Source of the DNA: Dudresnaya verticillata
Taxonomy: Eukaryota
Assembly: GCA_977862235.1 (NCBI GenBank)
Contig: OZ374565.1
Coordinates: 2,294,001-2,358,000, forward strand
DNA: 64,000 nucleotides
Direction: 5' to 3'
Part shown: positions 2,199 to 50,990 of the stretch, piece after piece
Layout: each line of letters begins with the position of its first letter
Position numbering within the stretch: position 1 is the stretch's first letter
Notes under the pieces: model-generated
The model's input: the letters and a program-made list of their open reading frames with translations, nothing else
What the model was told of the DNA's origin: nothing
Databases searched by the model: none
Made by a program: the position numbers and the translations under genes

Positions 2199-2229
2199 GG
2201 ATCACTCTGGAATCGCCAGTGCCGAATGT
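2199..2229 (+). rRNA. 5S: 5S rRNA gene 3' fragment (nt 90-120), gene disrupted by retrotransposon insertion
   Basis: GGATCACTCTGGAATCGCCAGTGCCGAATGT. The terminal GCCGAATGT is the exact complement of ACATTCGGC at 3319 (helix I). Followed by T runs. Joined to the 89-nt 5' part it gives 120 nt. Confidence 0.92.
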
Positions 2230-2241
2230 TTTTATTTTTTT
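2229..2241 (+). terminator. RNA polymerase III T-run terminator of the 5S gene
   Basis: T-runs separated by a single A, immediately after the 5S 3' end. Confidence 0.85.
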
Positions 2242-3318
2242 GCACCTCATTCCTTCCTCCCCGCCGCCCTCTGCGTACATTGCTGCCTTGCATACCTCTC
2301 CCACAGAATCCCCGACCCACTGCCTCTGTACAGCGTATTCTTTTCACTCGCACTTTTCCCCTTTTCTTGTAAGTGGGAGGGAGTCTGAGAGTGTTTGCAG
2401 GTGTCTAGGGGTTGTTTAGGGTTAGGTCTAGGGTTAGTTTGGTTACTGTGGTACGCGAGGGGCATGATATTGGGAGGGTAAAGGGTCTAGTGTTGGTGCA
2501 TGGAATGAATCATGGTGGTGGAAGGAATGGATCAGTGTGGTGGATGAATTGGATTTAGGGACATAGAATTGGATTAGATTTAGTACCCAGAAGATTGGAT
2601 CAAGGATCACCACAATCGGATCAAGTCTGGTGGCTGGGGTGAGGGTGGCTTGGACGTTTGTGCTCATAACTTTGGAACGGCTGGGGCTAGGGAGCTGCTC
2701 AGTAGCTGAATCGAAGCGTCTCGTTGCTGCGCATTGCGTAGCGCTCTTACCCTCCTAAATCGACTTTTTGGCGCGTTTCTATGGTGCAAAACGTCCCCAC
2801 GGGCCGTCGGCAGCTTTTGAGCAGATCAAATAGGGGTTTGGGGCATGTATGGTTATGGGTGGGTTTAGGGGTGTTAGGGATGTGTCATTTTAACGCGTTT
2901 AGGAGTGTAGGGAGTGGGAATGAAAGTAGTAAGGATGAGGAAATGGAAAGGGAAGGATGAGAAAGTATAGTACAATGCAGTAATACAAATCACGGAATGC
3001 ATCAGGTTGGGATCCAATAAGGGTGGATGGATTGGATCAACGGAAGTCAAGGCGTTATAGGATTGGATCTAGGGGCTCTGTAAATTAGATTGGGTGCTGG
3101 TTTCATTGAACCAAGGGGTCAGAACGTCCATGAGCTGGTTGACTGTATTTATATTGAATCCTGCGTTTAGAGTAAATGGTATACGGTTATGGGTCATTAC
3201 TTTAATGCTCCACGTGTACACTACAGTCGGATGGACATTGGACGCAGGAGTCTTTAGTCGATGACGGGGAGTGCAGTTGATGGCGCATTTAAATAGGGGT
3301 ACGGCGGGAACAGCAAGC
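2230..3318. other. 5S rDNA non-transcribed spacer (1089 bp; unit length 1209 bp)
   Basis: Lies between a 5S 3' end and the next 5S 5' start. Repeated apparently identically at 49813-50901. Confidence 0.88.
3288..3295 (+). promoter_or_regulatory. TATA-like element ~-30 of the 5S gene
   Basis: TTTAAATA at -31..-24 relative to 5S +1 (3319), the usual position for 5S upstream TATA-like elements. Confidence 0.6.
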
Positions 3319-3407
3319 ACATTCGGCCATACTACGCAGACATGCTCCGTATCCCATCCCGAACTGCGAAGATAAGTCTCGTCAGGCTGGTTTAGTACTG
3401 AGGTGAG
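3319..3407 (+). rRNA. 5S: 5S rRNA gene 5' fragment (nt 1-89), interrupted after ...AGTACTGAGGTGAG
   Basis: Eukaryotic 5S hallmarks: ACATTCGGCCATAC start, loop C CCCATCCCGAAC, GAAGATAAG, loop E TTAGTA. Helix IV GTGA-G|GGA-TCAC is completed by the 3' fragment. Confidence 0.93.
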
Positions 3408-3508
3408 TTCAACTTTATAACAGGTGATCATATTCTAATATTTTTCGACGTACAATCTACTCTAGTATCACACCAAAGTTAAACCCCAACTCAAGACAAC
3501 TTGCACAT

Positions 3509-6500
3509 CTACACCTCCTGTTGGATCCCTTCCATCAGGCACTTGACGTTGTTCTGCACCAGTCGCGCCGCGTGCCTGTGGAACAGAGCCGCTCGCGAAA
3601 CACCGCGAGTTACCATGGCCCGAGAAGCCACGGTATCCGCCAACTCTTGCATATACTTGTGCGCCTCCGGGTGCCAGCCACCTAGTGTGGTCATCGGCAC
3701 CGGCACAAGTCTTGCCCCCGGTCCGGCAGCCTGGATGAAGCCACGGTAAGTCCGCACCTTGTCAGCGTGGGCGTTCTTCAGCGTCCCTTGCGGGTTTGTT
3801 ATGCAGCTGAGAATGCGTTGTTCTGACGACAGTGGATGACTGATTGTGACGTCCAGGTAGTCCGTTCCTCCTTCTGTTCCAAGCGCCTTGATGTCCGGCC
3901 GATCCAGGTGAGCCCCCACAGGGCGGGGCTCCACAGTCGGGGTGCGTGTCGCACGTTTCAGATCCGAAGCCAGCAGACGAACCTGAGAGTCGTGGCGCCA
4001 CGACCGAGGAGATCCGCTGTTCCGCATGCCGTTCGGACAAATCAGCAGATGGTCGCCGTGAACATCCATCATCTTCTTGCACCCGGCCCGAGGACACTCC
4101 GTGTCGGGTTCCAGCAGTGGAATCCGACAGTAGAATCGAAGCCATACGCGGTAGTCCCGATCCGCAATGTACGTCTTCATGCCTGGTGCCGGCTGGCACT
4201 TGAGCCAGTCCTTGGCGCCCGGCACGCCAAGGGAAGCTCGGAAAGCTTGAGTCCGCCTGTCCCCGAGCGGCAGCTCGGCCTGCACCTTCTTCAGTACCAA
4301 CCGCGTCAAGTCCCGCTGGCGCGGGCACTCGTCGCTGTCGATCTTCTCCAGGTCCAGGGCATCCTCACTATGGCACTTGGCGCTCCAGTCTTCATGCGCT
4401 TCTACTGCAAAAGGATCATCAGAAAGAGCAGTGTTCACAGAAGCGGGTAAGATAGAACGCAGTAAGTTGCGGGTCAGTGAAAGGGACGCCAAAAACGCGC
4501 TCGAGTTCATGTCGCCAGCTCCCGAAATACCGATTCCGAAGCTGGGATCTTTCGTGCGCAGGGGAAGCTGAAGTTCGCGGAAGGTGTCCCTCGGTAGGAC
4601 TCCTCCCACGAGCTTGCGCATGCAAGCCTCAATCTTCTGGTCGAAGAGCTCGGCGCCCTTCGCCGTGGCGGATGATGGAACTACTCGCAGCAGGTAGTTC
4701 AGCCGGCAGACTCCGGCACAGTTGCGGAGTAGAGTTATGGCCACGTGTAGGTCTTCGAGTCCCGAAATTGCGTCCAGCAGGGGCTGGATGGACTCGACAT
4801 GGCCCTTCACGCTCTCCTCCATGTAGTTCTGCGTTCCAATCGGAGCCTGAAGTACTGTAGTGCCTTCTCCGTAGCTCTGCCCAAGATCCGACGGGTATGC
4901 AGCGCAGTCTTCTGGGTCGGGTGCAGTAGGCCACCAAACAGTACACTTGTCCATGCGCAGGTGGAAGCCGTAGCCCTTAGCTTCCTCGGAGTCAAAGAAG
5001 GACAGAACCTTCCTGAGTACGGCGTGTTTCGCCACGATGACGCCGTCGTCCAGGTAGAACAGTGACAGCAGCAAGTTGTTTGCTGCCTCCGCTTGCTGAT
5101 TGCGGCCCGAGCGCCGCAGGTCGGCGGTGAGTTCCTTCAACTGTTTGATCAGTGCCTGCAGCACCAAAGCAAACAGTAACGGCCCGAGCGGGTCACCTTG
5201 CTGTACACCAGTGACACTCCGCAGTAGAGTGTCACCCATCCACAGGTGCGGGCCCTCAGAGTCATAACAGTATCTGACCCACGATAGCAGTTCAGGCATA
5301 TGTCGGCGGACCTCCTTCATGAATGCTTTGCGGCTGACAAGGTTGAAGGCATTCTTCAAGTCCACTTGTAGCAACCCGTAGGACTTGTCATGGCCGTGAG
5401 AATTCTGCAGCTTCCGGACCGCGTGTACAATCGCTTCTGTGCCGCCCGAGGTTGCGACCCCGAGCTGAAGCGGTTCGAGGTATGCCTTGGCCTTGGGAGC
5501 GACTCTGGTCATGAGCATAGAGCTCACGAGTCGTCGGATTGTCTCTCCTACAGCAATGGGGCGGACACCGCCGGTGCGCTTCTTCAGAGCCGTGAGAGGA
5601 GCGCTGGCAATCCAAGGCGACAGCTCCGCAGGTCCTGCGCCGCTGGCCAGCACGTTGACCATTTTGGTGAGCCCGCCAAGCAGGCCCGTGTGCTCGTGGG
5701 TGGTCGGGACTGAGAGCAGTTCCTGCAGATGGGTCGGTGATAGTCCTGTGCCCCCCGAGGCCGAAGCCCGGGGGAACTTGGCCACTGCTTTTCGTACTTC
5801 GTCGGCTGTGAAAGGCACGAAGTCAGGGATGGTCGGCAGCGGTTCGGACTGGTCAAGCTCGTGGTCCGCGTCGGTTTGCGGTACGGACTGTGGGTGCTTG
5901 TCCGTCATGGACTGTATCACAGAGTCTGTGGCTGGGGCGATTCCATCAGAGTCTAGAGCTGCTGCTGCCTTACTGTAGGCGCCCTCCTTTGCGAGGCGAA
6001 GGGCTCGTGAGGCGTTGATACGGCGTTGCTCTTCTGCGGAAGGCGCAGTCTGCTCACGGAATGTCGAGCCCTTCAAGGCCTCCTGCCATAGGGAGTCGTA
6101 ATCCTTGAGTCCCCAGCGTCGGATTCGATCGCGGAAGGTGCCGATCGAGGACGCAGAGGTTGACGCGCCGGCCCTTGCACTCGCCGTGGGAGGATTGGAC
6201 AAGACGGCTGCTGGAAAAAGCAGGAATGCAGTGAGCTCTTTGGTGGCTTCCTGAGAGTTGTTTGCGTTCGTAAAAGCCCATACCGTCTTGGACAGTGCGT
6301 CGCGCACCTCTGCGCGGACGCGAGACGGTATATGTGTGACCATAGGGATATGCGAGCGACAGATATCTTCGACCGCCGGCAGAAGCTGCCCCCCCGGACC
6401 CCGCGCAGCGTGTCGGGTTTGCGCAGTTGGTACCTCTTGAGTAGCAGGTACCGGTGCAGGAGGCGGCTCCTGGCTGTCCGGGATTCGTCGCGGGGCTGGC

Positions 6501-6997
6501 AGGATATCGTCCGCTGGCTCGCCGTCCTCGGATTGCGTCTCCGTGACCACGTCCAGAGCAGGAGACTGTGATGGCGCGGCTACAGTTTCTTCACGGCTCG
6601 GTGTCGTCAATTGGTTGGACGGGACGTGGGAGAACGCCGGAGTGCGAGTAGCGGGACATGCGCTGCAATTCTTGTACCGCATACTGTACATGCCTTCACT
6701 GTTCATGCGGGAGCTACAGTGGGTGGGCATGTACTTGTTGTGAGTCACACAGTACCATACGCCATAGTCCAGGAGCTGCTGCTTGAGAGGCTCGATGTCG
6801 GTCCTCGTCGGTGGTCCTCGCCTGCCAGGAACATGCATCTTCCGCAGGTGCATGAGTAGCGCTTCTACAGTAGGCAGTGAGGACGACTGGCAGCCCAGAG
6901 GACAGCTGGTACTGTTTGTCGGGCGGTGTTTTGCCGAAGGCATAAAGCATGGAGAGAGCCATACCTTCGGCATGTCGGGGTGCTGCTGACCAATCAT
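3509..6997 (-). CDS. ZnF-RT-CCHC-RLE retrotransposon protein, 1162 aa
   Basis: CCHH finger CPLGC-x13-HLRKMH. RT motifs GGVRPIAVGETIRRL, QVDLKNAFN, GVQQGDPLGPLLF, FYLDDG. CCHC CPRAGC-x9-HLLIC. RLE motifs RHD, RPDI, YLDVTI, DKVRTY. ATG in AACCATG context. Confidence 0.95.
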   Translation of the reverse strand: MIGQQHPDMPKVWLSPCFMPSAKHRPTNSTSCPLGCQSSSLPTVEALLMHLRKMHVPGRRGPPTRTDIEPLKQQLLDYGVWYCVTHNKYMPTHCSSRMNSEGMYSMRYKNCSACPATRTPAFSHVPSNQLTTPSREETVAAPSQSPALDVVTETQSEDGEPADDILPAPRRIPDSQEPPPAPVPATQEVPTAQTRHAARGPGGQLLPAVEDICRSHIPMVTHIPSRVRAEVRDALSKTVWAFTNANNSQEATKELTAFLLFPAAVLSNPPTASARAGASTSASSIGTFRDRIRRWGLKDYDSLWQEALKGSTFREQTAPSAEEQRRINASRALRLAKEGAYSKAAAALDSDGIAPATDSVIQSMTDKHPQSVPQTDADHELDQSEPLPTIPDFVPFTADEVRKAVAKFPRASASGGTGLSPTHLQELLSVPTTHEHTGLLGGLTKMVNVLASGAGPAELSPWIASAPLTALKKRTGGVRPIAVGETIRRLVSSMLMTRVAPKAKAYLEPLQLGVATSGGTEAIVHAVRKLQNSHGHDKSYGLLQVDLKNAFNLVSRKAFMKEVRRHMPELLSWVRYCYDSEGPHLWMGDTLLRSVTGVQQGDPLGPLLFALVLQALIKQLKELTADLRRSGRNQQAEAANNLLLSLFYLDDGVIVAKHAVLRKVLSFFDSEEAKGYGFHLRMDKCTVWWPTAPDPEDCAAYPSDLGQSYGEGTTVLQAPIGTQNYMEESVKGHVESIQPLLDAISGLEDLHVAITLLRNCAGVCRLNYLLRVVPSSATAKGAELFDQKIEACMRKLVGGVLPRDTFRELQLPLRTKDPSFGIGISGAGDMNSSAFLASLSLTRNLLRSILPASVNTALSDDPFAVEAHEDWSAKCHSEDALDLEKIDSDECPRQRDLTRLVLKKVQAELPLGDRRTQAFRASLGVPGAKDWLKCQPAPGMKTYIADRDYRVWLRFYCRIPLLEPDTECPRAGCKKMMDVHGDHLLICPNGMRNSGSPRSWRHDSQVRLLASDLKRATRTPTVEPRPVGAHLDRPDIKALGTEGGTDYLDVTISHPLSSEQRILSCITNPQGTLKNAHADKVRTYRGFIQAAGPGARLVPVPMTTLGGWHPEAHKYMQELADTVASRAMVTRGVSRAALFHRHAARLVQNNVKCLMEGIQQEV

Positions 6998-7766
6998 GGT
7001 TACAGCGCTGGGTAAGGTACCTGTAAAGGTCCTCTACAGTAGGTTCCCTCGGGGCACAGACCTCCTAACCGGGACGCAAGCCTGTCGTCCGTCGTCAGTC
7101 TGTTCGGGACACCTCCAGAGGGTGCTACAGGTGGCCTTGCTGCGAGATGAAGGCCTCTTCGCAGCGTAGGGCGCGAGATCGCGCAATTTGCGCACGAGCT
7201 CGCGCAAAAGGGCGCACGTGTTAGCGTTCGCGCGCAGAGTTATCGGACGTTCCCTTCCCTGCCGCAGCTGAGAAGACTCTCTTCACTGCGGTCCTGTAAC
7301 GCGCGGTACTTCTCGTTTGCACAAGCTCTCAATGGGGTCGCAGAACCACCGTCTACCTGTGAGTGCCCACAGGATTTTTGGCCTCCCCCGAAGGTTCGCT
7401 GGCAGGACGTTCGCTCGATCTTAGAAGGGGTGGTTTCAAAACAGGATCCACCAGGCTTAAGCCACGTTACCCCAACTTCGACGTTGCTTGGCACGTTTCT
7501 GCGATGAGCTTGTGGGTCACGAGCCGCCTACCACTCAAGGTCGAGGGTCTTTGGCGATTCCCACACTTGTAGGTCTCTCGGCACTTCCCGAAGGAAGATT
7601 TTACAGGACAAGCCTGGCCTTTACCAATCTGTCAGTTGAAGGGTGTGAAACCCCTCTGTCGACAGTCCACGGCAGCCTAGACAGAGTCTAGGCTGTGCCG
7701 GGTACAAGCAAAACGCGTACAGGGCCAGGGAAAGAAAGATAAGTCAGTGGGGCCCGGGCAAATTTC

Positions 7767-7784
7767 AAGGTGAGGGATCACCTT
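7767..7784. other. Target-site mimic hairpin in the element 5' UTR (present in every full-length copy)
   Basis: AAGGTGA-GGGA-TCACCTT is a perfect 7-bp inverted repeat. AGGTGAGGGATCAC (7768-7781) is identical to 5S nt 83-96. Confidence 0.8.
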
Positions 7785-7818
7785 AAAAGTAAGCGCAAAA
7801 TAGGAAACGCGTGACCGT

Positions 7819-7861
7819 CGGCGACGACGGCGGCGGCGACGGCGGCGACGACGACGGCGTC
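7819..7861. repeat. Imperfect (GGC/GAC)n trinucleotide tract in the element 5' UTR (all full-length copies)
   Basis: CGGCGACGACGGCGGCGGCGACGGCGGCGACGACGACGGC. Confidence 0.85.
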
Positions 7862-8049
7862 GCGGCGCAGATCGGCGGCGCAAAAAGAGACAAAAGTAGA
7901 CCGCGCTCGCCCGCCCGCGAAGGTGAAGGGCTGAAAAACCCCGCACCGACGCGCCGTCGCGCGCTCGAACAGGCGGCACCGCCGCCGAAAAGATCGGTGC
8001 AGAACTTGTTGAGATATCCGCGAAACAAAATTTTCGGCAGATCGCGAGG

Positions 8050-8075
8050 AGTACTGAGGTGAGTACTGAGGTGAG
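8050..8075 (+). repeat. Inter-element junction: tandemly doubled 5S target sequence
   Basis: AGTACTGAGGTG x2 + AG, matching 5S nt 76-89. Confidence 0.9.
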
Positions 8076-11000
8076 TTCAACTTTATAACAGGTGATCATA
8101 TTCTAATATTTGTCGACGTACAATCTACTGTAGTATCACAACAAAGTTAAACCCCAACTCAAAACAACTTGCACATCTACACCTCCTGTTGGATCCCTTC
8201 CATCAGGCACTTGACGTTGTTCTGCACCAGTCGCGCCGCGTGCCTGTGGAATAGAGCCGCTCGCGAAACACCGCGAGTTACCATGGCCCGAGAAGCCACA
8301 GTATCCGCCAACTCTTGCATGTACTTGTGCGCCTCCGGGTGCCAGCCACCTAGTGTGGTCATCGGCACCGGCACAAGTCTTGCCCCCGGTCCGGCAGCCT
8401 GGATGAAGCCACGGTAAGTCCTCACCTTGTCAGCGTGGGCGTTCTTCAGCGTCCCTTGCGGGTTTGTTATGCAGCTGAGAACGCGTTGTTCTGACGACAG
8501 TGGATGACTGATTGTGACGTCCAGGTAGTCCGTTCCTCCTTCTGTTCCAAGCGCCTTGATGTCCGGCCGATCCAGGTGAGCCCCCACAGGGCGGGGCTCC
8601 ACAATCGGGGTGCGTGTTGCACGTTTCAGATCCGAAGCCAGCAGACGAACCTGAGAGTCGTGGCGCCACGACCGAGGAGATCCGCTGTTCCGCATGCCGT
8701 TCGGACAAATCAGCAGATGGTCGCCGTGAACATCCATCTTCTTCTTGCACCCGGCCCGAGGACACTCCGTGTCGGGTTCCAGCAGTGGAATCCGACAGTA
8801 GAATCGAAGCCATACGCGGTAGTCCCGATCCGCAATGTACGTCTTCATGCCTGGTGCCGGCTGGCACTTGAGCCAGTCCTTGGCGCCCGGCGCGCCAAGG
8901 GAAGCTCGGAAAGCTTGCGTCCGCCTGTCCCCGAGCGGCAGCTCGGCTTGCACTTTCTTCAGTACCAACCGCGTCAAGTCCCTCTGGCGTGGGCACTCGT
9001 CGCTGTCGATCTTCTCCAGGTCCAGAGCATCCTCACTATGGCACTTGGCGCTCCAGTCTTCGTGCGCTTCTACTGCAAAAGGATCGTCAGAAAGAGCAGT
9101 GTTCACAGAAGCGGGTAAGATAGAACGCAGTAAGTTGCGGGTCAGTGAAAGGGACGCCAAAAACGCGCTCGAGTTCATGTCGCCAGCTCCCGAAATACCG
9201 ATTCCGAAGCTGGGCTCTTTCGTGCGCAGGGGAAGCTGAAGTTCGCGGAAGGTGTCCCTCGGTAGGACTCCTCCCACGAGCTTGCGCATGCAAGCCTCAA
9301 TCTTCTGGTCGAAGAGCTCGGCGCCCTTCGCCGTGGCGGATGATGGAACTACTCGCAGCAGGTAGTTCAGCCGGCAGACTCCGGCACAGTTCCGGAGTAG
9401 AGTGATGGCCACGTGTAGGTCTTCTAGTCCCGAAATTGCGTCCAGCAGGGGCTGGATGGACTCTACATGGCCCTTCACGCTCTCCTCCATGTAGTTCTGC
9501 GTTCCAATCGGAGCCTGAAGTACTGTAGTGCCTTCTCCGTAGCTCTGCCCAAGATCCGACGGGTAGGCAGCGCAGTCTTCTGGGTCGGGTGCAGTAGGCC
9601 ACCAAACAGTACACTTGTCCATGCGCAGGTGGAAGCCATAGCCCTTAGCTTCCTCGGAGTCAAAGAAGGACAGAACCTTCCTGAGTACGGCGTGTTTCGC
9701 CACGATGACGCCGTCGTCCAGGTAGAACAGTGACAGCAGCAAGTTGTTCGCCCCCTCCGCTTGCTGATTGCGGCCCGAGCGCCGCAGGTCGGCGGTGAGT
9801 TCCTTCAACTGTTTGATCAGTGCCTGCAGCACCAAAGCAAACAGTAACGGCCCGAGCGGGTCACCTTGCTGTACACCAGTGACACTCCGCAGTAGAGTGT
9901 CACCCATCCACAGGTGCGGGCCCTCAGAGTCATAACAGTATCTGACCCACGGTAGTAGTTCAGGCATATGTCGGCGGACCTCCTTCATGAATGCTTTGCG
10001 GCTGACAAGGTTGAAGGCATTCTTCAAGTCCACTTGTAGCAACCCGTAGGACTTGTCATGGCCGTGAGACTTCTGCAGCTTCCGGACCGCGTGTACAATC
10101 GCTTCTGTGCCGCCCGAGGTTGCGACCCCGAGCTGAAGCGGTTCGAGGTATGCCTTGGCCTTGGGAGCGACTCTGGTCATGAGCATAGAGCTCACGAGTC
10201 GTCGGATTGTCTCTCCTACAGCAATGGGGCGGACACCGCCGGTGCGCTTCTTCAGAGCCGTGAGAGGAGCGCTGGCAATCCAAGGCGACAGCTCCGCAGG
10301 TCCTGCACCGTTGGCCAGCACGTTGACCATTTTGGTGAGCCCGCCAAGCAGGCCCGTGTGCTCGTGGGTGGTCGGGACTGAGAGCAGTTCCTGCAGATGG
10401 GTCGGTGATAGTCCTGTGCCCCCCGAGGCCGAAGCCCGGGGGAACTTGGCCACTGCTTTTCGTACTTCGTCGGCTGTGAAAGGCACGAAGTCAGGGATGG
10501 TCGGCAGCGGTTCGGACTGGTCAAGCTCGTGGTCCGCGTCGGTTTGCGGTACGGACTGTGGGTGCTTGTCCTTCATGGACTGTATCACAGAGTCTGTGGC
10601 TGGCGCGATTCCATCAGAGTCTAGAGCTGCTGCTGCCTTACTGTAGGCGCCCTCCTTTGCGAGGCGAAGGGCTCGTGAGGCGTTGATACGGCGTTGCTCT
10701 TCTGCGGAAGGCGCAGTCTGCTCACGGAATGTCGAGCCCTTCAAGGCCTCCTGCCATAGGGCGTCGTAATCCTTGAGTCCCCAGCGGCGGATTCGATCGC
10801 GGAAGGTCCCGATCGAGGACGCAGAGGTTGACGCGCCGGCCCTTGCACTCGCCGCGGGAGGATTGGACAAGACGGCTGCTGGAAAAAGCAGGAATGCAGT
10901 GAGCTCTTTGGTGGCTTCCTGAGAGTTGTTTGCGTTCGTAAAAGCCCATACCGTCTTGGACAGTGCGTCGCGCACCTCTGCGCGGACGCGAGACGGTATA

Positions 11001-12720
11001 TGTGTGACCATAGGGATATGCGAGCGACAGATATCTTCGACCGCCGGCAGAAGCTGCCCTCCTGGACCCCGCGCAGCGTGTCGGGTTTGCGCAGTTGGTA
11101 CCACTTGAGTAGCTGGTACCGGTGCAGGAGGCGGCTCCTGGCTGTCCGGGATTCGTCGCGGGGCTGGCAGGATATCGTCCGCCGGCTCGCCGTCCTCGGG
11201 TTGCGTCTCCGTGACCGCGTCCAGAGCAGGAGTCTGTGATGGCGCGGCTACAGTTTCTTCACGGCTCGGTGTCGTCAATTGGTTGGACGGGACGTGGGAG
11301 AACGCCGGAGTGCGAGTGGCGGGACATGCGCTGCAATTCTTGTACCGCATACTGTACATGCCTTCACTGTTCATGCGGGAGCTACAGTGGGTAGGCATGT
11401 ACTTGTTGTGAGTCACACAGTACCATACGCCATAGTCCAGGAGCTGCTGCTTGAGAGGCTCGATGTCGGTCCTCGTCGGTGGTCCTCGCCTGCCAGGAAC
11501 ATGCATCTTCCGCAGGTGCATGAGTAGCGCTTCTACAGTAGGCAGTGAGGACGACTGGCAGCCCAGAGGACAGCTGATACTGTTTGTCGGGCGGTGTTTT
11601 GCCGAAGGCATAAAGCATGGAGAGAGCCATACCTTCGGCATGTCGGGGTGCTGCTGACCAATCATGGTTACAGCGCTGGGTAAGGTACCTGTAAAGGTCC
11701 TCTACAGTAGGTTCCCACGGGGCACAGACCTCCTAACCGGGACGCAAGCCTGTCGTCCGTCGTCAGTCTGTTCGGGACACCTCCAGAGGGTGCTACAGGT
11801 GGCCTTGCTGCGAGATGAAGGCCTCTTCGCAGCGTAGGGCGCGAGATCGCGCAATTTGCGCACGAGCTCGCGCAAAAGGGCGCGCGTGTTAGCGTTCGTG
11901 CGCGCAGACTTATCGGACGTTCCCTTCCCTGCCGCAGCTGAGAAGACTCTCTTCACTGCGGTCCTGTAACGCGCGGTACTTCTCGTTTGCACAAGCTCTC
12001 AATGGGGTCGCAGAACCACCGTTTACCTGTGAGTGCCCACAGGATTTTTGGCCTCCCCCGAAGGTTCGCTGGCAGGACGTTCGCTCGATCTTAGAAGGGG
12101 TGGTTTCAAAACAGGATCCACCAGGCTTAAGCCACGTTACCCCAACTTCGACGTTGCTTGGCACGTTTCTGCGATGAGCTTGTGGGTCACGAGCCGCCTA
12201 CCACTCAAGGTCGAGGGTCTTTGGCGATTCCCACACTTGTAGGTCTCTCGGCACTTCCCGAAGGAAGATTTTACAGGACAAGCCTGGCCTTTACCAATCT
12301 GTCAGTTGAAGGGTGTGAAACCCCTCTGTCGACAGTCCACGGCAGCCTAGACAGAGTCTAGGCTGTGCCGGGTACAAGCAAAACGCGTACAGGGCCAGGG
12401 AAAGAAAGATAAGTCAGTGGGGCCCGGGCAAATTTCAAGGTGAGGGATCACCTTAAAAGTAAGCGCAAAATAGGAAACGCGTGACCGTCGGCGACGACGG
12501 CGGCGGCGACGGCGGCGACGACGACGGCGTCGCGGCGCAGATCGGCGGCGCAAAAAGAGACAAAAGTAGACCGCGCTCGCCCGCCGTCAAAGGTGAAGGG
12601 CTGAAAAACCCCGCACCGACGCGCCGTCGCGCGCTCGAACAGGCGGCACCGCCGCCGAAAAGATCGGTGCAGAACTTGCTGAGAAATCTCCGAAACAAAA
12701 AATTCGGCAGATCGCGAGGG
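8076..12720 (-). mobile_element. Copy E2: full-length (subfamily B)
   Basis: Same structure as E1. Followed by AGTACTGAGGTGAG (12721-12734). Confidence 0.95.
8177..11665 (-). CDS. ZnF-RT-CCHC-RLE protein, 1162 aa
   Basis: Intact ORF, same motifs as 3509-6997. Confidence 0.95.
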   Translation of the reverse strand: MIGQQHPDMPKVWLSPCFMPSAKHRPTNSISCPLGCQSSSLPTVEALLMHLRKMHVPGRRGPPTRTDIEPLKQQLLDYGVWYCVTHNKYMPTHCSSRMNSEGMYSMRYKNCSACPATRTPAFSHVPSNQLTTPSREETVAAPSQTPALDAVTETQPEDGEPADDILPAPRRIPDSQEPPPAPVPATQVVPTAQTRHAARGPGGQLLPAVEDICRSHIPMVTHIPSRVRAEVRDALSKTVWAFTNANNSQEATKELTAFLLFPAAVLSNPPAASARAGASTSASSIGTFRDRIRRWGLKDYDALWQEALKGSTFREQTAPSAEEQRRINASRALRLAKEGAYSKAAAALDSDGIAPATDSVIQSMKDKHPQSVPQTDADHELDQSEPLPTIPDFVPFTADEVRKAVAKFPRASASGGTGLSPTHLQELLSVPTTHEHTGLLGGLTKMVNVLANGAGPAELSPWIASAPLTALKKRTGGVRPIAVGETIRRLVSSMLMTRVAPKAKAYLEPLQLGVATSGGTEAIVHAVRKLQKSHGHDKSYGLLQVDLKNAFNLVSRKAFMKEVRRHMPELLPWVRYCYDSEGPHLWMGDTLLRSVTGVQQGDPLGPLLFALVLQALIKQLKELTADLRRSGRNQQAEGANNLLLSLFYLDDGVIVAKHAVLRKVLSFFDSEEAKGYGFHLRMDKCTVWWPTAPDPEDCAAYPSDLGQSYGEGTTVLQAPIGTQNYMEESVKGHVESIQPLLDAISGLEDLHVAITLLRNCAGVCRLNYLLRVVPSSATAKGAELFDQKIEACMRKLVGGVLPRDTFRELQLPLRTKEPSFGIGISGAGDMNSSAFLASLSLTRNLLRSILPASVNTALSDDPFAVEAHEDWSAKCHSEDALDLEKIDSDECPRQRDLTRLVLKKVQAELPLGDRRTQAFRASLGAPGAKDWLKCQPAPGMKTYIADRDYRVWLRFYCRIPLLEPDTECPRAGCKKKMDVHGDHLLICPNGMRNSGSPRSWRHDSQVRLLASDLKRATRTPIVEPRPVGAHLDRPDIKALGTEGGTDYLDVTISHPLSSEQRVLSCITNPQGTLKNAHADKVRTYRGFIQAAGPGARLVPVPMTTLGGWHPEAHKYMQELADTVASRAMVTRGVSRAALFHRHAARLVQNNVKCLMEGIQQEV

Positions 12721-26693: not shown

Positions 26694-26712
26694 CTCGAAA
26701 CCTCGAGGTGAG

Positions 26713-29700
26713 TTCAACTTTATAACAGGTGACCATATTCTAATATTTGTCGACGTACAATCTACTGTAGTATCACAACAAAGTTAAACCCCAACTCAAA
26801 ACAACCTGCACATCTACACCTCCTGTTGGATCCCTTCCATCAGGCACTTGACGTTGTTCTGCACCAGTCGCGCCGCGTGCCTGTGGAACAGAGCCGCTCG
26901 CGAAACACCGCGAGTTACCATGGCCCGAGAAGCCACGGTATCCGCCAACTCTTGCATATACTTGTGCGCCTCCGGGTGCCAGCCACCTAGTGTGGTCATC
27001 GGCACCGGCACAAGCCTTGCCCCCGGTCCGGCAGCCTGGATGAAGCCACGGTAAGTCCGCACCTTGTCAGCGTGGGCGTTCTTCAGCGTCCCTTGCGGGT
27101 TTGTTATGCAGCTGAGAATGCGTTGTTCTGACGACAGTGGATGACTGATTGTGACGTCCAGGTAGTCCGTTCCTCCTTCTGTTCCAAGCGCCTTGATGTC
27201 CGGCCGATCCAAGTGAGCCCCCACAGGGCGGGGCTCCACAATCGGGGTGCGTGTCGCACGTTTCAGATCCGAAGCCAGCAGACGAACCTGAGAGTCGTGG
27301 CGCCACGACCGAGGAGATCCGCTGTTCCGCATGCCGTTCGGACAAATCAGCAGATGGTCGCCGTGAACATCCATCATCTTCTTGCACCCGGCCCGAGGAC
27401 ACTCCGTGTCGGGTTCCAGCAGTGGAATCCGACAGTAGAATCGAAGCCATACGCGGTAGTCCCGATCCGCAATGTACGTCTTCATGCCTGGTGCCGGCTG
27501 GCACTTGAGCCAGTCCTTGGCGCCCGGCACGCCAAGGGAAGCTCGGAAAGCTTGCGTCCGCCTGTCCCCGAGCGGCAGCTCGGCTTGCACTTTCTTCAGA
27601 ACCAACCGCGTCAAGTCCCGCTGGCGCGGGCACTCGTCGCTGTCGATCTTCTCCAGGTCCAGGGCATCCTCACTATGGCACTTGGCGCTCCAGTCTTCGT
27701 GCGCTTCTACTGCAAAAGGATCGTCAGAAAGAGCAGTGTTCACAGAAGCGGGTAAGATAGAACGCAGTAAGTTGCGGGTCAGTGAAAGGGACGCCAAAAA
27801 CGCGCTCGAGTTCATGTCGCCAGCTCCCGAAATACCGATTCCGAAGCTGGGCTCTTTCGTGCGCAGGGGAAGCTGAAGTTCGCGGAAGGTGTCCCTCGGT
27901 AGGACTCCTCCCACGAGCTTGCGCATGCAAGCCTCAATCTTCTGGTCGAAGAGCTCGGCGCCCTTTGCCGTGGCGGATGATGGAACTACTCGCAGCAGGT
28001 AGTTCAGCCGGCAGACTCCGGCACAGTTGCGGAGTAGAGTGATGGCCACGTGTAGGTCTTCTAGTCCCGAAATTGCGTCCAGCAGGGGCTGGATGGACTC
28101 GACATGGCCATTCACGCTCTCCTCCATGTAGTTCTGCGTTCCAATCGGAGCCTGAAGTACTGTAGTGCCTTCTCCGTAGCTCTGCCCAAGATCCGACGGG
28201 TAGGCAGCGCAGTCTTCTGGGTCGGGTGCAGTAGGCCACCAAACAGTACACTTGTCCATGCGCAGGTGGAAGCCATAGCCCTTAGCTTCCTCGGAGTCAA
28301 AGAAGGACAGAACCTTCCTGAGTACGGCGTGTTTCGCCACGATGACGCCGTCGTCCAGGTAGAACAGTGACAGCAGCAAGTTGTTCGCCCCCTCCGCTTG
28401 CTGATTGCGGCCCGAGCGCCGCAGGTCGGCGGTGAGTTCCTTCAACTGTTTGATCAGTGCCTGCAGCACCAAAGCAAACAGTAACGGCCCGAGCGGGTCA
28501 CCTTGCTGTACACCAGTGACACTCCGCAGTAGAGTGTCACCCATCCACAGGTGCGGGCCCTCAGAGTCATAACAGTATCTGACCCACGGTAGTAGTTCAG
28601 GCATATGTCGGCGGACCTCCTTCATGAATGCTTTGCGGCTGACAAGGTTGAAGGCATTCTTCAAGTCCACTTGTAGCAACCCGTAGGACTTGTCATGGCC
28701 GTGAGACTTCTGCAGCTTCCGGACCGCGTGTACAATGGCTTCTGTGCCGCCCGAGGTTGCGACCCCGAGCTGAAGCGGTTCGAGGTATGCCTTGGCCTTG
28801 GGAGCGACTCTGGTCATGAGCATAGAGCTCACGAGTCGTCGGATTGTCTCTCCTACAGCAATGGGGCGGACACCGCCGGTGCGCTTCTTCAGAGCCGTGA
28901 GAGGAGCGCTGGCAATCCAAGGCGACAGCTCCGCAGGTCCTGCGCCGCTGGCCAGCACGTTGACCATTTTGGTGAGCCCGCCAAGCAGGCCCGTGTGCTC
29001 GTGAGTGGTCGGGACTGAGAGCAGTTCCTGCAGATGGGTCGGTGATAGTCCTGTTCCCCCCGAGGCCGAAGCCCGGGGGAACTTGGCCACTGCTTTTCGT
29101 ACTTCGTCGGCTGTGAAAGGCACGAAGTCAGGCATGGTCGGCAGCGGTTCGGACTGGTCAAGCTCGTGGTCCGCGTCGGTTTGCGGTACGGACTGCGGGT
29201 GCTTGTCCTTCATGGACTGTATCACAGAGTCTGTGGCTGGGGCGATTCCATCAGAGTCTAGAGCTGCTGCTGCCTTACTGTAGGCGCCCTCCTTTGCAAG
29301 GCGAAGGGCTCGTGAGGCATTGATACGGCGTTGCTCTTCTGCGGAAGGCGCAGTCTGCTCACGGAATGTCGAGCCCTTCAAGGCCTCCTGCCATAGGGCG
29401 TCGTAATCCTTGAGTCCCCAGCGTCGGATTCGATCGCGGAAGGTGCCGATCGAGGACGCAGAGGTTGACGCGCTGGCCCTTGCACTCGCGGCGGGAGGAT
29501 TGGACAAGACGGCTGCTGGAAAAAGCAGGAATGCAGTGAGCTCTTTGGTGGCTTCCTGAGAGTTGGTTGCGTTCGTAAAAGCCCATACCGTCTTGGACAG
29601 TGCGTCGCGCACCTCGGCGCGGACGCGAGACGGTATATGTGTGACCATAGGGATATGCGAGCGACAGATGTCTTCGACCGCCGGCAGAAGCTGCCCTCCT

Positions 29701-31352
29701 GGACCCCGCGCAACGGGTGGGGTTTGCGCAGTTGGTACCTCTCGAGTAGCAGGTACCGGTGCAGGAGGCGGCTCCTGGCTGTCCGGGATTCGTCGCGGGG
29801 CTGGCAGGATATCGTCCGCTGGCTCGCCGTCCTCGGGTTGCGTCTCCGTGACCGCGTCCAGAGCAGGAGACTGTGATGGCGCGGCTACAGTTTCTTCACG
29901 GCTCGGTGTCGTCAATTGGTTGGACGGGACGTGGGAGAACGCCGGAGTGCGAGTAGCGGGACATGCGCTGCAATTCTTGTACCGCATACTGTACATGCCT
30001 TCACTGTTCATGCGGGAGCTACAGTGGGTGGGCATGTACTTGTTGTGAGTCACACAGTACCATACTCCATAGTCCAGGAGCTGCTGCTTGAGAGGCTCGA
30101 TGTCGGTCCTCGTCGGTGGTCCTCGCCTGCCAGGAACATGCATCTTCCGCAGGTGCATGAGTAGCGCTTCTACAGTAGGCAGTGAGGACGACTGGCAGCC
30201 CAGAGGACAGCTGGTACTGTTTGTCGGGCGGTGTTTTGCCGAAGGCATAAAGCATGGAGAGAGCCATACCTTCGGCATGTCGGGGTGCTGCTGACCAATC
30301 ATGGTTACAGCGCTGGGTAAGGTACCTGTAAAGGTCCTCTACAGTAGGTTCCCACGGGGCACAGGCCTCCTAACCGGGACGCAAGCCTGTCGTCCGTCGT
30401 CAGTCTGTTCGGGACACCTCCAGAGGGTGCTACAGGTGGCCTTGCTGCGAGATGAGGGCCTCTTCGCAGCGTAGGGCGCGAGATCGCGCACTTTGCGCAC
30501 GAGCTCGCGCAAAAGGGCGCGCGTGTTAGCGTTCGTGCGCGCAGAGTTATCGGACGTTCCCTTCCCTGCCGCAGCTGAGAAGACTCTCTTCACTGCGGTC
30601 CTGTAACGCGCGGTACTTCTCGTTTGCACAAGCTCTCAATGGGGTCGCAGAACCACCGTCTACCTGTGAGTGCCCACAGGATTTTTGGCCTCCCCCGAAG
30701 GTTCGCTGGCAGGACGTTCGCTCGATCTTAGAAGGGGTGGTTTCAAAACAGGATCCACCAGGCTTAAGCCACGTTACCCCAACTTCGACGTTGCTTGGCA
30801 CGTTTCTGCGATGAGCTTGTGGGTCACGAGCCGCCTACCACTCAAGGTCGAGGGTCTTTGGCGATTCCCACACTTGTAGGTCTCTCGGCACTTCCCGAAG
30901 GAAGATTTTACAGGACAAGCCTGGCCTTTACCAATCTGTCAGTTGAAGGGTGTGAAACCCCTCTGTCGACAGTCCACGGCAGCCTAGACAGAGTCTAGGC
31001 TGTGCCGGGTACAAGCAAAACGCGTACAGGGCCAGGGAAAGAAAGATAAGTCAGTGGGGCCCGGGCAAATTTCAAGGTGAGGGATCACCTTAAAAGTAAG
31101 CGCAAAATAGGAAACGCGTGACCGTCGGCGACGACGGCGGCGGCGACGGCGGCGACGACGACGGCGTCGCGGCGCAGATCGGCGGCGCGGAAAGAGACAA
31201 AAGTAGACCGCGCTCGCCCGCCCGCGAAGGTGAAGGGCTGAAAAACCCCGCACCGACGCGCCGTCGCGCGCTCGAACAGGCGGCACCGCCGCCGAAAAGA
31301 TCGGTGCAGAACTTGTTGAGATATCCGCGAAACAAAAATTTCGGCAGATCGC
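26713..31352 (-). mobile_element. Copy E6: full-length (subfamily C)
   Basis: 5' junction GATCGC-TGAGGTGAG. Confidence 0.95.
26814..30302 (-). CDS. ZnF-RT-CCHC-RLE protein, 1162 aa
   Basis: Intact ORF, same motifs. Confidence 0.95.
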   Translation of the reverse strand: MIGQQHPDMPKVWLSPCFMPSAKHRPTNSTSCPLGCQSSSLPTVEALLMHLRKMHVPGRRGPPTRTDIEPLKQQLLDYGVWYCVTHNKYMPTHCSSRMNSEGMYSMRYKNCSACPATRTPAFSHVPSNQLTTPSREETVAAPSQSPALDAVTETQPEDGEPADDILPAPRRIPDSQEPPPAPVPATREVPTAQTPPVARGPGGQLLPAVEDICRSHIPMVTHIPSRVRAEVRDALSKTVWAFTNATNSQEATKELTAFLLFPAAVLSNPPAASARASASTSASSIGTFRDRIRRWGLKDYDALWQEALKGSTFREQTAPSAEEQRRINASRALRLAKEGAYSKAAAALDSDGIAPATDSVIQSMKDKHPQSVPQTDADHELDQSEPLPTMPDFVPFTADEVRKAVAKFPRASASGGTGLSPTHLQELLSVPTTHEHTGLLGGLTKMVNVLASGAGPAELSPWIASAPLTALKKRTGGVRPIAVGETIRRLVSSMLMTRVAPKAKAYLEPLQLGVATSGGTEAIVHAVRKLQKSHGHDKSYGLLQVDLKNAFNLVSRKAFMKEVRRHMPELLPWVRYCYDSEGPHLWMGDTLLRSVTGVQQGDPLGPLLFALVLQALIKQLKELTADLRRSGRNQQAEGANNLLLSLFYLDDGVIVAKHAVLRKVLSFFDSEEAKGYGFHLRMDKCTVWWPTAPDPEDCAAYPSDLGQSYGEGTTVLQAPIGTQNYMEESVNGHVESIQPLLDAISGLEDLHVAITLLRNCAGVCRLNYLLRVVPSSATAKGAELFDQKIEACMRKLVGGVLPRDTFRELQLPLRTKEPSFGIGISGAGDMNSSAFLASLSLTRNLLRSILPASVNTALSDDPFAVEAHEDWSAKCHSEDALDLEKIDSDECPRQRDLTRLVLKKVQAELPLGDRRTQAFRASLGVPGAKDWLKCQPAPGMKTYIADRDYRVWLRFYCRIPLLEPDTECPRAGCKKMMDVHGDHLLICPNGMRNSGSPRSWRHDSQVRLLASDLKRATRTPIVEPRPVGAHLDRPDIKALGTEGGTDYLDVTISHPLSSEQRILSCITNPQGTLKNAHADKVRTYRGFIQAAGPGARLVPVPMTTLGGWHPEAHKYMQELADTVASRAMVTRGVSRAALFHRHAARLVQNNVKCLMEGIQQEV

Positions 31353-31361
31353 TGAGGTGAG

Positions 31362-31595
31362 TTCAACTTTATAACAGGTGACCATATTCTAATATTTGTC
31401 GACGTACAATCTACTGTAGTATCACAACAAAGTTAAACCCCAACTCAAAACAACCTGCACATCTACACCTCCTGTTGGATCCCTTCCATCAGGCACTTGA
31501 CGTTGTTCTGCACCAGTCGCGCCGCGTGCCTGTGGAACAGAGCCGCTCGCGAAACACCGCGAGTTACCATGGCCCGAGAAGCCACAGTATCCGCC
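31362..31595 (-). mobile_element. Copy E7: severely 5'-truncated (234 bp; 3' UTR plus last ~44 codons)
   Basis: Element 3' end up to GTATCCGCC, then AGGTGAG (31596-31602) and the next copy. Confidence 0.93.
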
Positions 31596-31602
31596 AGGTG
31601 AG

Positions 31603-34600
31603 TTCAACTTTATAACAGGTGACCATATTCTAATATTTGTCGACGTACAATCTACTGTAGTATCACAACAAAGTTAAACCCCAACTCAAAACAACCTGCA
31701 CATCTACACCTCCTGTTGGATCCCTTCCATCAGGCACTTGACGTTGTTCTGCACCAGTCGCGCCGCGTGCCTGTGGAACAGAGCCGCTCGCGAAACACCG
31801 CGAGTTACCATGGCCCGAGAAGCCACGGTATCCGCCAACTCTTGCATATACTTGTGCGCCTCCGGGTGCCAGCCACCTAGTGTGGTCATCGGCACCGGCA
31901 CAAGCCTTGCCCCCGGTCCGGCAGCCTGGATGAAGCCACGATAAGTCCGCACCTTGTCAGCGTGGGCGTTCTTCAGCGTCCCTTGCGGGTTTGTTATGCA
32001 GCTGAGAATGCGTTGTTCTGACGACAGTGGGTGACTGATTGTGACGTCCAGGTAGTCCGTTCCTCCTTCTGTTCCAAGCGCCTTGATGTCCGGCCGATCC
32101 AAGTGAGCCCCCACAGGGCGGGGCTCCACAATCGGGGTGCGTGTCGCACGTTTCAGATCCGAAGCCAGCAGACGAACCTGAGAGTCGTGGCGCCACGACC
32201 GAGGAGATCCGCTGTTCCGCATGCCGTTCGGACAAATCAGCAGATGGTCGCCGTGAACATCCATCATCTTCTTGCACCCGGCCCGAGGACACTCCGTGTC
32301 GGGTTCCAGCAGTGGAATCCGACAGTAGAATCGAAGCCATACGCGGTAGTCCCGATCCGCAATGTACGTCTTCATGCCTGGTGCCGGCTGGCACTTGAGC
32401 CAGTCCTTGGCGCCCGGCACGCCAAGGGAAGCTCGGAAAGCTTGCGTCCGCCTGTCCCCGAGCGGCAGCTCGGCTTGCACTTTCTTCAGAACCAACCGCG
32501 TCAAGTCCCGCTGGCGCGGGCACTCGTCGCTGTCGATCTTCTCCAGGTCCAGGGCATCCTCACTATGGCACTTGGCGCTCCAGTCTTCGTGCGCTTCTAC
32601 TGCAAAAGGATCGTCAGAAAGAGCAGTGTTCACAGAAGCGGGTAAGATAGAACGCAGTAAGTTGCGGGTCAGTGAAAGGGACGCCAAAAACGCGCTCGAG
32701 TTCATGTCGCCAGCTCCCGAAATACCGATTCCGAAGCTGGGCTCTTTCGTGCGCAGGGGAAGCTGAAGTTCGCGGAAGGTGTCCCTCGGTAGGACTCCTC
32801 CCACGAGCTTGCGCATGCAAGCCTCAATCTTCTGGTCGAAGAGCTCGGCGCCCTTTGCCGTGGCGGATGATGGAACTACTCGCAGCAGGTAGTTCAGCCG
32901 GCAGACTCCGGCACAGTTGCGGAGTAGAGTGATGGCCACGTGTAGGTCTTCTAGTCCCGAAATTGCGTCCAGCAGGGGCTGGATGGACTCGACATGGCCA
33001 TTCACGCTCTCCTCCATGTAGTTCTGCGTTCCAATCGGAGCCTGAAGTACTGTAGTGCCTTCTCCGTAGCTCTGCCCAAGATCCGACGGGTAGGCAGCGC
33101 AGTCTTCTGGGTCGGGTGCAGTAGGCCACCAAACAGTACACTTGTCCATGCGCAGGTGGAAGCCATAGCCCTTAGCTTCCTCGGAGTCAAAGAAGGACAG
33201 AACCTTCCTGAGTACGGCGTGTTTCGCCACGATGACGCCGTCGTCCAGGTAGAACAGTGACAGCAGCAAGTTGTTCGCCCCCTCCGCTTGCTGATTGCGG
33301 CCCGAGCGCCGCAGGTCGGCGGTGAGTTCCTTCAACTGTTTGATCAGTGCCTGCAGCACCAAAGCAAACAGTAACGGCCCGAGCGGGTCACCTTGCTGTA
33401 CACCAGTGACACTCCGCAGTAGAGTGTCACCCATCCACAGGTGCGGGCCCTCAGAGTCATAACAGTATCTGACCCACGGTAGTAGTTCAGGCATATGTCG
33501 GCGGACCTCCTTCATGAATGCTTTGCGGCTGACAAGGTTGAAGGCATTCTTCAAGTCCACTTGTAGCAACCCGTAGGACTTGTCATGGCCGTGAGACTTC
33601 TGCAGCTTCCGGACCGCGTGTACAATGGCTTCTGTGCCGCCCGAGGTTGCGACCCCGAGCTGAAGCGGTTCGAGGTATGCCTTGGCCTTGGGAGCGACTC
33701 TGGTCATGAGCATAGAGCTCACGAGTCGTCGGATTGTCTCTCCTACAGCAATGGGGCGGACACCGCCGGTGCGCTTCTTCAGAGCCGTGAGAGGAGCGCT
33801 GGCAATCCAAGGCGACAGCTCCGCAGGTCCTGCGCCGCTGGCCAGCACGTTGACCATTTTGGTGAGCCCGCCAAGCAGGCCCGTGTGCTCGTGAGTGGTC
33901 GGGACTGAGAGCAGTTCCTGCAGATGGGTCGGTGATAGTCCTGTTCCCCCCGAGGCCGAAGCCCGGGGGAACTTGGCCACTGCTTTTCGTACTTCGTCGG
34001 CTGTGAAAGGCACGAAGTCAGGCATGGTCGGCAGCGGTTCGGACTGGTCAAGCTCGTGGTCCGCGTCGGTTTGCGGTACGGACTGCGGGTGCTTGTCCTT
34101 CATGGACTGTATCACAGAGTCTGTGGCTGGGGCGATTCCATCAGAGTCTAGAGCTGCTGCTGCCTTACTGTAGGCGCCCTCCTTTGCAAGGCGAAGGGCT
34201 CGTGAGGCATTGATACGGCGTTGCTCTTCTGCGGAAGGCGCAGTCTGCTCACGGAATGTCGAGCCCTTCAAGGCCTCCTGCCATAGGGCGTCGTAATCCT
34301 TGAGTCCCCAGCGTCGGATTCGATCGCGGAAGGTGCCGATCGAGGACGCAGAGGTTGACGCGCTGGCCCTTGCACTCGCGGCGGGAGGATTGGACAAGAC
34401 GGCTGCTGGAAAAAGCAGGAATGCAGTGAGCTCTTTGGTGGCTTCCTGAGAGTTGGTTGTGTTCGTAAAAGCCCATACCGTCTTGGACAGTGCGTCGCGC
34501 ACCTCGGCGCGGACGCGAGACGGTATATGTGTGACCATAGGGATATGCGAGCGACAGATGTCTTCGACCGCCGGCAGAAGCTGCCCTCCTGGACCCCGCG

Positions 34601-36246: not shown

Positions 36247-36262
36247 GGTTCTCCCAGGTGAG

Positions 36263-37215: not shown

Positions 37216-37222
37216 AGGTGAG

Positions 37223-37250
37223 GGATCACTCTGGAATCGCCAGTGCCGAA
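37223..37250 (+). pseudogene. 5S: Orphan 5S rRNA fragment (nt 90-117) between two elements
   Basis: GGATCACTCTGGAATCGCCAGTGCCGAA, preceded by AGGTGAG and followed by CCTCGAGGTGAG. No terminator, spacer or 5' half follows. Confidence 0.88.
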
Positions 37251-41902: not shown

Positions 41903-41970
41903 TGAGGGAGTACTCGAGGTGCAACAAAACAAAAATTTCGGCAGATCGCGGAGGGAGTCCTCGAGGTGAG

Positions 41971-49600: not shown

Positions 49601-49769
49601 GGCAGAAGCTGCCCCCCCGGACCCCGCGCAGCGTGTCGGGTTTGCGCAGTTGGTACCTCTTGAGTAGCAGGTACCGGTGCAGGAGGCGGCTCCTGGCTGT
49701 CCGGGATTCGTCGCGGGGCTGGCAGGATATCGTCCGCTGGCTCGCCGTCCTCGGATTGCGTCTCCGTGA
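46631..49769 (-). mobile_element. Copy E12: 5'-truncated (A/B chimera), lacks 5' UTR and zinc finger region
   Basis: Similarity ends at ...TCTCCGTGA, then ACTC and GAGGTGAG (49774-49781), then the 5S 3' part. Confidence 0.94.
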
Positions 49770-49781
49770 ACTCGAGGTGAG

Positions 49782-49812: not shown

Positions 49813-49824
49813 TTTTATTTTTTT
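49812..49824 (+). terminator. Pol III T-run terminator
   Basis: T-runs directly after the 5S 3' end. Confidence 0.85.
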
Positions 49825-50901: not shown

Positions 50902-50990
50902 ACATTCGGCCATACTACGCAGACATGCTCCGTATCCCATCCCGAACTGCGAAGATAAGTCTCGTCAGGCTGGTTTAGTACTGAGGTGAG
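50902..50990 (+). rRNA. 5S: 5S rRNA gene 5' fragment (nt 1-89), interrupted at the same base as 3407
   Basis: Identical to 3319-3407. Confidence 0.93.

Follow-up and report, generated by a model that had tools for sequence, protein, structure and literature searches.

Sequence evidence for a captured 5S internal control region in the leader of a probably CRE-like retrotransposon that inserts into 5S rRNA genes

The leader of a retrotransposon that interrupts host 5S rRNA genes contains what its sequence identifies as a captured 5S internal control region, lying in the orientation of the host gene and antisense to the element's own reading frame. Two blocks of exact identity to the host gene, a Box A block at 7736..7745 (plus strand, 5S nt 51-60) and a 14-mer at 7768-7781 (nt 83-96), fall on one ungapped 5S diagonal with a 22-nt spacer in 11/11 full copies of the element. 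The initial annotation had described the 14-mer as a copy of the element's target site, with 7 nt from each side of the insertion point; that match is confirmed, while the framing proves too narrow, the 14-mer being half of a larger feature whose second exact block had been missed. The exact blocks, their spacing, the matches at promoter positions and the copied host departures from consensus together identify the region, which we regard as real, non-random and a captured 5S promoter region; any function must be read from the near-identical copies of one host.

Correspondence between leader and host 5S gene

The host 5S reference was assembled from a left half (3319-3407) and a right half (2199-2229), and we take it to resemble red-algal 5S. 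In Xenopus 5S the boxes lie at nt 50-64 (A), 67-72 (intermediate element, IE) and 80-97 (C). Consensus strings for the three boxes (PMC3369914) were set at offsets from these coordinates; on the host 5S their best placement starts from nt 52 (15/21 specified positions, the next 11), an offset of +2. The matched blocks span 5S nt 51-96, which at this offset agrees with the limits given for the internal control region of yeast (bp 50-94, PMC10245719) and for the boxes of Xenopus (+50-60, +67-72 and +80-90, PMC7279448).

Within the 120-nt 5S-equivalent frame of the element (7686..7805, plus strand; projected Pol III +1 at 7686), the consensus Box A spans 7737-7751, and all 6 of its specified positions fall inside 7736-7745, where the element matches host nt 51-60 at 10/10 positions and the general consensus at 4/6, as does the host itself. 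An IE-like hexamer at 7754..7759 (plus strand, nt 69-74) agrees with 3/3 specified positions (host 2/3), three positions being weak evidence when taken alone. The Box C span at 7767..7784 (plus strand, nt 82-99) is exactly the 18-nt interval that had originally been marked; its 12 specified positions are all identical to the host, and both element and host match the general consensus at 9/12. Taken together, the element equals the host at 20/21 consensus-specified promoter positions and at 25/99 others (Fisher p 1.7e-9), and it follows the host at 5 of the 6 positions where the host departs from consensus.

Identity is confined to the two blocks. Along the ungapped 5S it runs 9/50, 10/10, 6/22, 14/14 and 6/24, so that positions outside the blocks stand at chance level (21/96). 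Shuffling the element produced an exact 14-nt match somewhere in 5S in 2/1000 cases, and none of 1000 shuffles reached the sum of 24 given by runs of 14 and 10 on one diagonal (largest sum 17); given the 14-mer, a second run of 10 arose in 12/200000 trials. Uniform decay of a 5S copy to 45 matches in 120 yielded runs of 14 and 10 in 0/200000 trials. The suggestion that the motif is a fossil 5' junction may thus describe its origin and does not describe its present state, whereas the suggestion of a captured Box C is favoured by sequence and extends to the whole region from Box A through IE to Box C. Nothing is left of a 5S fold in the element copy, and Rfam RF00001 has no match in 6950-8200 at E up to 10. 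Positions -35..-1 of the projected +1 lack an AT-rich or TATA-like box, unlike the host 5S gene, which has one at 3287..3295 (plus strand, -32..-24 of the gene). Two 10-nt matches to 5S on the opposite strand were without a partner block and were taken as chance, and a 9/10 partial copy of the Box C start at 7920-7929, 153 nt from the main one and altered in one copy, is probably chance as well.

The 14-mer has 14 exact matches in the window, i.e. the whole 64-kb stretch of DNA analysed here, against a shuffle mean of 0.43 at <=2 mismatches. Three of these are true 5' junctions (2192, 37216, 49775) and the other 11 are internal, one per full 5' UTR, in keeping with the original observation that every visible 5' UTR carries the motif (11/11 full copies; Box C at 12437, 17096, 21754, 26412, 31074, 35964, 41624, 46332, 55353 and 60024 in the ten copies beyond copy 1). 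We reject this identity as a sign of selection because the 11 full copies are 98.4-99.9% alike and most nearby windows are invariant too (765/1022 18-nt windows of the element 5' region). The motif spans 261-278 nt from the element end at 8045, in line with the ~270 nt first given for the hairpin that contains it. That hairpin is present, though its stated length of 7 bp was too short: in element RNA it is predicted as an 11-bp stem with one U-G pair and a 4-nt loop (7763..7788, minus strand; arms 7763-7773 and 7778-7788), at -11.4 kcal/mol compared with -8.9 on the opposite strand and -5.4 for the host 5S helix. Outside the loop the 14-mer has a predicted unpaired probability of 0.0-0.17, and the priming-side half of the motif is predicted to be fully paired. 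A pairing of the hairpin's 5' arm with 3' UTR positions 3420-3430, noticed by eye, was dropped since the 3' UTR site varies among copies.

The element, its array and its insertion site

Across the whole window, copies of a 4.64-kb CRE/SLACS-like non-LTR retrotransposon follow one another head to tail on the minus strand; 11 are full (~4640 bp), four are 5'-truncated and one is cut by the window end. SLACS and CRE elements target spliced-leader genes. Each full copy has one long reading frame; in copy 1 (3408..8045, minus strand) this single ORF occupies 3509..6997 (minus strand) and encodes C2H2 finger, RT (PF00078), CCHC and restriction-like endonuclease motifs. Domain content was read on the ORF of copy 2 (8177-11701), in which the RT domain matches PF00078 at E 1e-16, there is one C2H2 finger, and a CCHC plus a restriction-like endonuclease motif (RHD..E..RPD..D) occupies residues 980-1061, the latter located with the published pattern of PMC12857005 after widening three spacers. 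The element shares with the CRE group a single ORF of ~1160 aa with RT, C-terminal CCHC and restriction-like endonuclease, as well as site-specific insertion with target duplication (7-14 nt here), 5' truncation (4 copies here) and the lack of LTRs. Its nearest 23 proteins are unannotated (32-55% identity over the alignment), its named protein matches are labelled SLACS (27-34%), and its closest relatives, P0002-P0006, reach 47-57% protein identity. A quick tree of 34/121 proteins, unrooted and built without an R2/R4/NeSL outgroup, places it in an unnamed clade of 24 proteins, apart from the rows labelled SLACS (clade definitions from PMC4640811). The element is thus likely CRE-like, and its intact ORFs and 99% alike copies suggest that it is apparently active. 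In one relative, P0006, the N-terminal part includes an additional protease domain (PF02902); judged by eye, the sequence at 5100-5750 of locus L002, upstream of the match, could encode a similar domain.

Host 5S sequence occurs in the window as two left halves (nt 1-89), one at 3319..3407, where the array has its 3' end, the other at 50902-50990, and as two right halves (nt 90-120), one at 2199..2229, with a T-run terminator after it, the other from 49782, all on the plus strand. A 1089-bp 5S spacer with strong G/T skew is identical at 2230-3318 and 49813-50901, and telomere-like motifs occur in it near 2400-2440. Insertion takes place after 5S nt 89, the same base to which 15/15 visible 3' ends are joined, and target-site duplications of 7-14 nt of 5S lie across the junctions, as at 8046..8075 (plus strand), where the 5' junction of copy 1 meets the 3' end of copy 2. 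The element 3' end (3408-3440) lacks a poly(A) tail. Together with the adjoining 5S left half it still scores as a full 5S in Rfam at 51.8 bits, which lets a broken 5S gene pass for an intact one in annotation. Within a single 5S gene, 12 copies lie head to tail (9 full, 3 truncated; 3408-49781), mostly with distinct 5' junctions, and the 5' junction at 41880-41970 has the terminal ~25 nt of the element in duplicate, as is typical when a template jump has occurred.

The junctions themselves bear on what the element requires of its target. We compared, for 12 of 14 copies with both junctions visible (two abutting 5S on the 3' side were excluded), the letters that a 5' junction shares with its own 3' junction and with 5S, capping the shared length at 20. 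The 5' junction shares more with its own 3' junction in 9/12 copies, fewer in 1/12 and equally many in 2/12, with 11 of 46934 valid permutations scoring as high. Recurring snap-back additions, and also unequal crossing-over, could inflate such sharing. In the clearest case, the truncated copy at 46631-49781, the same 12 nt, including one non-5S base, stand on both sides. Positions 26712 and 37262 share 14 nt and bracket a block that has 5S nt 83-117 inside it, at a 5' junction within the array (37216..37250, plus strand). The one contrary junction fits a block at 26713-37250 that would have arrived with nt 83-117 on its 5' end and been followed by later insertions. The bracketed block is likely a copy that brought its upstream flank along and so created a new internal target, and nt 83-117 at 37216-37250 likely served as target for those later insertions, an order of events that we infer.

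These patterns indicate that new copies enter a site that retains the 3' half of 5S and has no Box A, and the array appears to have grown by repeated insertion at that end. On our reading the enzyme would need, besides the 3' half of 5S, ~7 nt on the other side of the cut, and not Box A, so that the Box A block in the leader is left without a targeting role. For R2 proteins, target DNA is read by N-terminal fingers and the flank upstream of the 5' end is recognised, according to the available text of PMC12503042. No insertion is seen at the internal sites (0/11), as previously noted, which supports the earlier view that the 14 bp are not sufficient for targeting. The internal copy would go unused because only 7 nt of the 5S 3' half are present there; the junctions point to nt 97-117 as the missing part, and to a target of ~35 bp (nt 83-117).

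The leader and the possible roles of the boxes

The 5' UTR (6998..8045, minus strand) is 1048 nt long, free of AUG in 11/11 copies and structured on the sense strand. Shuffles carry a mean of 5.9 AUGs and none in 3/5000 cases, folding is stronger for the sense (z -5.4) than for the antisense strand (z -1.6), and U-runs are frequent near the leader start (within 360 nt the plus strand has 8 A4+ runs). A leader of this kind, AUG-free, well folded and with many U-runs, is what one would expect a Pol II mRNA to have. Were the antisense 5S intact, it would contribute four AUGs, a possible reason why the rest of the 5S copy decayed. A search of the 5' UTR against Rfam at E up to 10 gave one chance-level match and no ribozyme. 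The minus strand at 7050-8045 has many predicted stems and two C-UUCG-G loops; a 10-bp perfect stem at 7673-7695 sits on the projected Pol III +1, and similar hairpins at 7634-7654 and 7921-7941 flank the boxes. Haplotypes can be told apart by six linked substitutions at 8009-8032, the very 5' end, other parts of the leader being nearly invariant.

Short boxes held at exact spacing around a free spacer are characteristic of sites where a protein binds double-stranded DNA, and host factors probably bind the boxes in some form. We lean, by a modest degree, towards the reading that host TFIIIA/TFIIIC bind them on the DNA of inserted copies and keep the promoter region of the element open. A 5S gene would once have been copied into the element's 5' end, a kind of capture that is visible at 37216-37250, and all but the factor-binding positions would then have decayed. 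The TFIIIA/TFIIIC complex would sit ~260-310 bp downstream of the element 5' end and act as a non-transcribing platform, either a barrier or a nucleosome-free seat, for sense transcription by Pol II; the element would in effect bring along the Box C that its insertion breaks. TFIIIA, the reader of the 5S boxes, recruits TFIIIC (PMC10245719, PMC12409998), and TFIIIC occupies sites without TFIIIB or Pol III and acts as a barrier (PMC12409998). The platform is proposed by analogy with these sites, and the non-transcribed TFIIIC sites described in the available text of PMC12409998 are B-box sites, not TFIIIA sites. The hairpin would likely be a secondary fix that hides bases complementary to the nicked primer end and so prevents mis-priming in the leader; no leader-only insertions are seen in the window, which is consistent with this role but weak as evidence for it. 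A stronger version, in which an autonomous element that cuts the TFIIIA site carries a host-tracking replacement promoter and TFIIIA/TFIIIC license its own Pol II transcription, strikes us as possible yet doubtful.

The same exact blocks, spacing and host-matching positions could also form a working Pol III type-1 promoter. An antisense RNA would then start from ~7686, traverse the first 360 nt of the element and, beyond the junction, the 3' half of 5S as far as the native terminator, and the RNA or the act of transcription would limit the element or open the next target site. Promoters of the SINE3 type do not depend on a fixed upstream flank. Cassandra is transcribed by Pol III from its captured 5S boxes (PMC10886601, bioRxiv 10.1101/2023.07.14.548913), and 9/11 copies have no T4 run between the projected +1 and the junction. 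We rejected that scarcity of plus-strand T-runs as support, however, because composition explains it (1 seen, 0.2 expected). A point against such a promoter is that the first T4 run is >2.6 kb away in 6/11 arrayed copies. The host gene's upstream AT box has no counterpart in the element, and folding favours the opposite, sense strand; the documented requirement for a TATA box concerns tRNA genes of plants and S. pombe (PMC7279448) rather than the 5S of this host. The absent AT box, together with the AUG-free, folded and U-run-bearing sense leader, favours a bound but non-transcribing seat, and we regard antisense Pol III transcription as unlikely.

The remaining explanations fare worse. A Box C match alone cannot separate a host factor from the element's own protein, because Box C is also the element's target, and the blocks might form a two-part site for that protein, with Box A and cut site read together for autoregulation or as a decoy. 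The motif does cover the cut site at 7+7, the shortest duplication is the same 7 nt, and the protein's single C2H2 finger recalls the target-reading fingers of R2 (PMC12503042). An internal copy would on this account be a full target, yet none of 11 is used; the re-used sites appear from the junction comparison (9/12; 11/46934 permutations) to keep the 5S 3' half without Box A, and the flank that R2 reads, upstream of the 5' end, corresponds here to the 5S 3' half, not to Box A. The target-decoy option of the initial annotation is weakened accordingly, and we hold an element-protein site to be improbable. Its option of RNA-guided pairing loses more ground. The complementarity of element RNA to the nicked strand is borne out at -7..+7 and recurs at -39..-30, in favour of a guide during targeting; the motif is nevertheless predicted to be locked in its 11-bp stem, priming-side half included, pairing would not require a fixed 22-nt unmatched spacer, and the re-used targets would offer no Box A partner. 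New copies entering sites without Box A thus disfavour guide and decoy alike, and the guide seems to us very unlikely. Nor is a functionless relic much to be expected. Such a relic could be a 5S gene captured long ago, or a SINE3-like element nested in the leader, with selection on its boxes predating the capture; alternatively, neighbouring 5S genes might have been the source of recently copied patches. Pieces of 5S do get captured at 5' junctions (37216-37250), a 21-nt direct repeat of 71% brackets the region (7634, 7921), and the 5S part of Ajax has been proposed to derive from SINE3 (PMC10886601). Against a relic, uniform decay does not reproduce the pattern (0/200000), both boxes are perfect to the present host amid surroundings at chance level, and the start of the bracketing repeat lies 52 nt upstream of the projected +1, with no tail evident.

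If TFIIIA/TFIIIC do bind the boxes as proposed, intact genes would also face competition for TFIIIA from arrays that number a dozen copies per broken 5S gene, and factors thought dedicated to 5S at such boxes would gain another use. TFIIIA would then have a role outside 5S synthesis, and expression of the parasite would be tied to a factor of its target gene. The case is also relevant to the transcription of site-specific elements whose orientation is opposite to that of the host gene, and a precise 5S-targeting element with a restriction-like endonuclease is of interest for retrotransposon-based insertion tools.

Relatives and known systems

Three scans for relatives gave 138 loci (80, 57 and 1, the 80 being the best 80 of at least 468 metagenome loci), which are distant (24-48% protein identity) and for the most part short. 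Across these 138 loci, including the best 80 of at least 468 from metagenomes, nhmmer found no 5S, neither the bipartite nor a generic box pattern occurred, and homology to the 5' UTR was limited to low-complexity matches; Rfam found no 5S in 20 of the loci. The bipartite pattern was found in 0 viral contigs. Among the sequencing runs listed for the element, none was of RNA, and one DNA run (0.07 share) did not cover the motif. Fifty-seven loci in prokaryote genome assemblies (L081-L137) encode relatives of this eukaryote-type RT and are probably host or food DNA binned in; one of them, L084, has long inverted repeats at both ends.

In the literature searched, which lay outside Repbase Reports and most subscription journals, we found no autonomous element with an antisense 5S control region and no CRE-like element in 5S. 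Already known are captured 5S promoters in small non-autonomous elements, used for their own transcription; new here are backward boxes in a protein-coding element that destroys the same boxes on insertion. The carriers of 5S promoters tabulated in a 2024 review are all SINEs or TRIMs, as far as its available text goes (PMC10946416).

Known systems, as described in the accessible text of the papers cited, each share part of this arrangement; those nearest to it, Ajax, Cassandra and SINE3, are all non-autonomous. The Ajax TRIM of nemerteans has likewise retained Box A, IE and Box C as the sole remains of 5S, without the 5S fold, with box function inferred from conservation; it is, however, a short non-autonomous LTR element with its boxes in the LTRs, read as driving its own RNA (PMC10886601), whereas the present carrier is an autonomous non-LTR element with boxes against its ORF that inserts into Box C of the same gene. 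The plant TRIM Cassandra resembles it in a fixed box spacing without indels, in mirroring host box variants and in mutations gathered between the boxes, and differs in having ~70 bp or more of 5S similarity, Pol III transcription, LTRs and no ORF (bioRxiv 10.1101/2023.07.14.548913); the present match is limited to 10+14 nt, and the mirroring is observed in a single host. The lack of LTRs and the intact RT-endonuclease ORF set the element apart from the Cassandra/Ajax (TRIMp3) type. SINE3 is also a retroelement carrying a 5S type-1 promoter, in its case as the sense 5' head of a short non-coding element (PMC10886601, PMC10946416), while the present boxes lie ~260-310 nt inside and antisense, with no duplication adjoining the projected +1. 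Sequence-specific insertion into 5S genes is shared with zebrafish Mutsu, a two-ORF element whose insertion point lies ~20 nt from the 5' end of 5S (PMC5340908), and with Dada-5S, a DNA transposon (PMC8869645); the available text mentions an internal 5S promoter for neither, and the present element differs from both in combining one ORF, a restriction-like endonuclease and insertion after nt 89. The CRE group (SLACS, CRE1/2, CZAR, Cnl1, MoTeR, FoTeR) shares the single ORF with RT, CCHC and RHD..E..RPD..D endonuclease and the site-specific insertion in a repeat (PMC12857005), but its known targets are spliced-leader genes and telomeres, whereas the element described here targets 5S.
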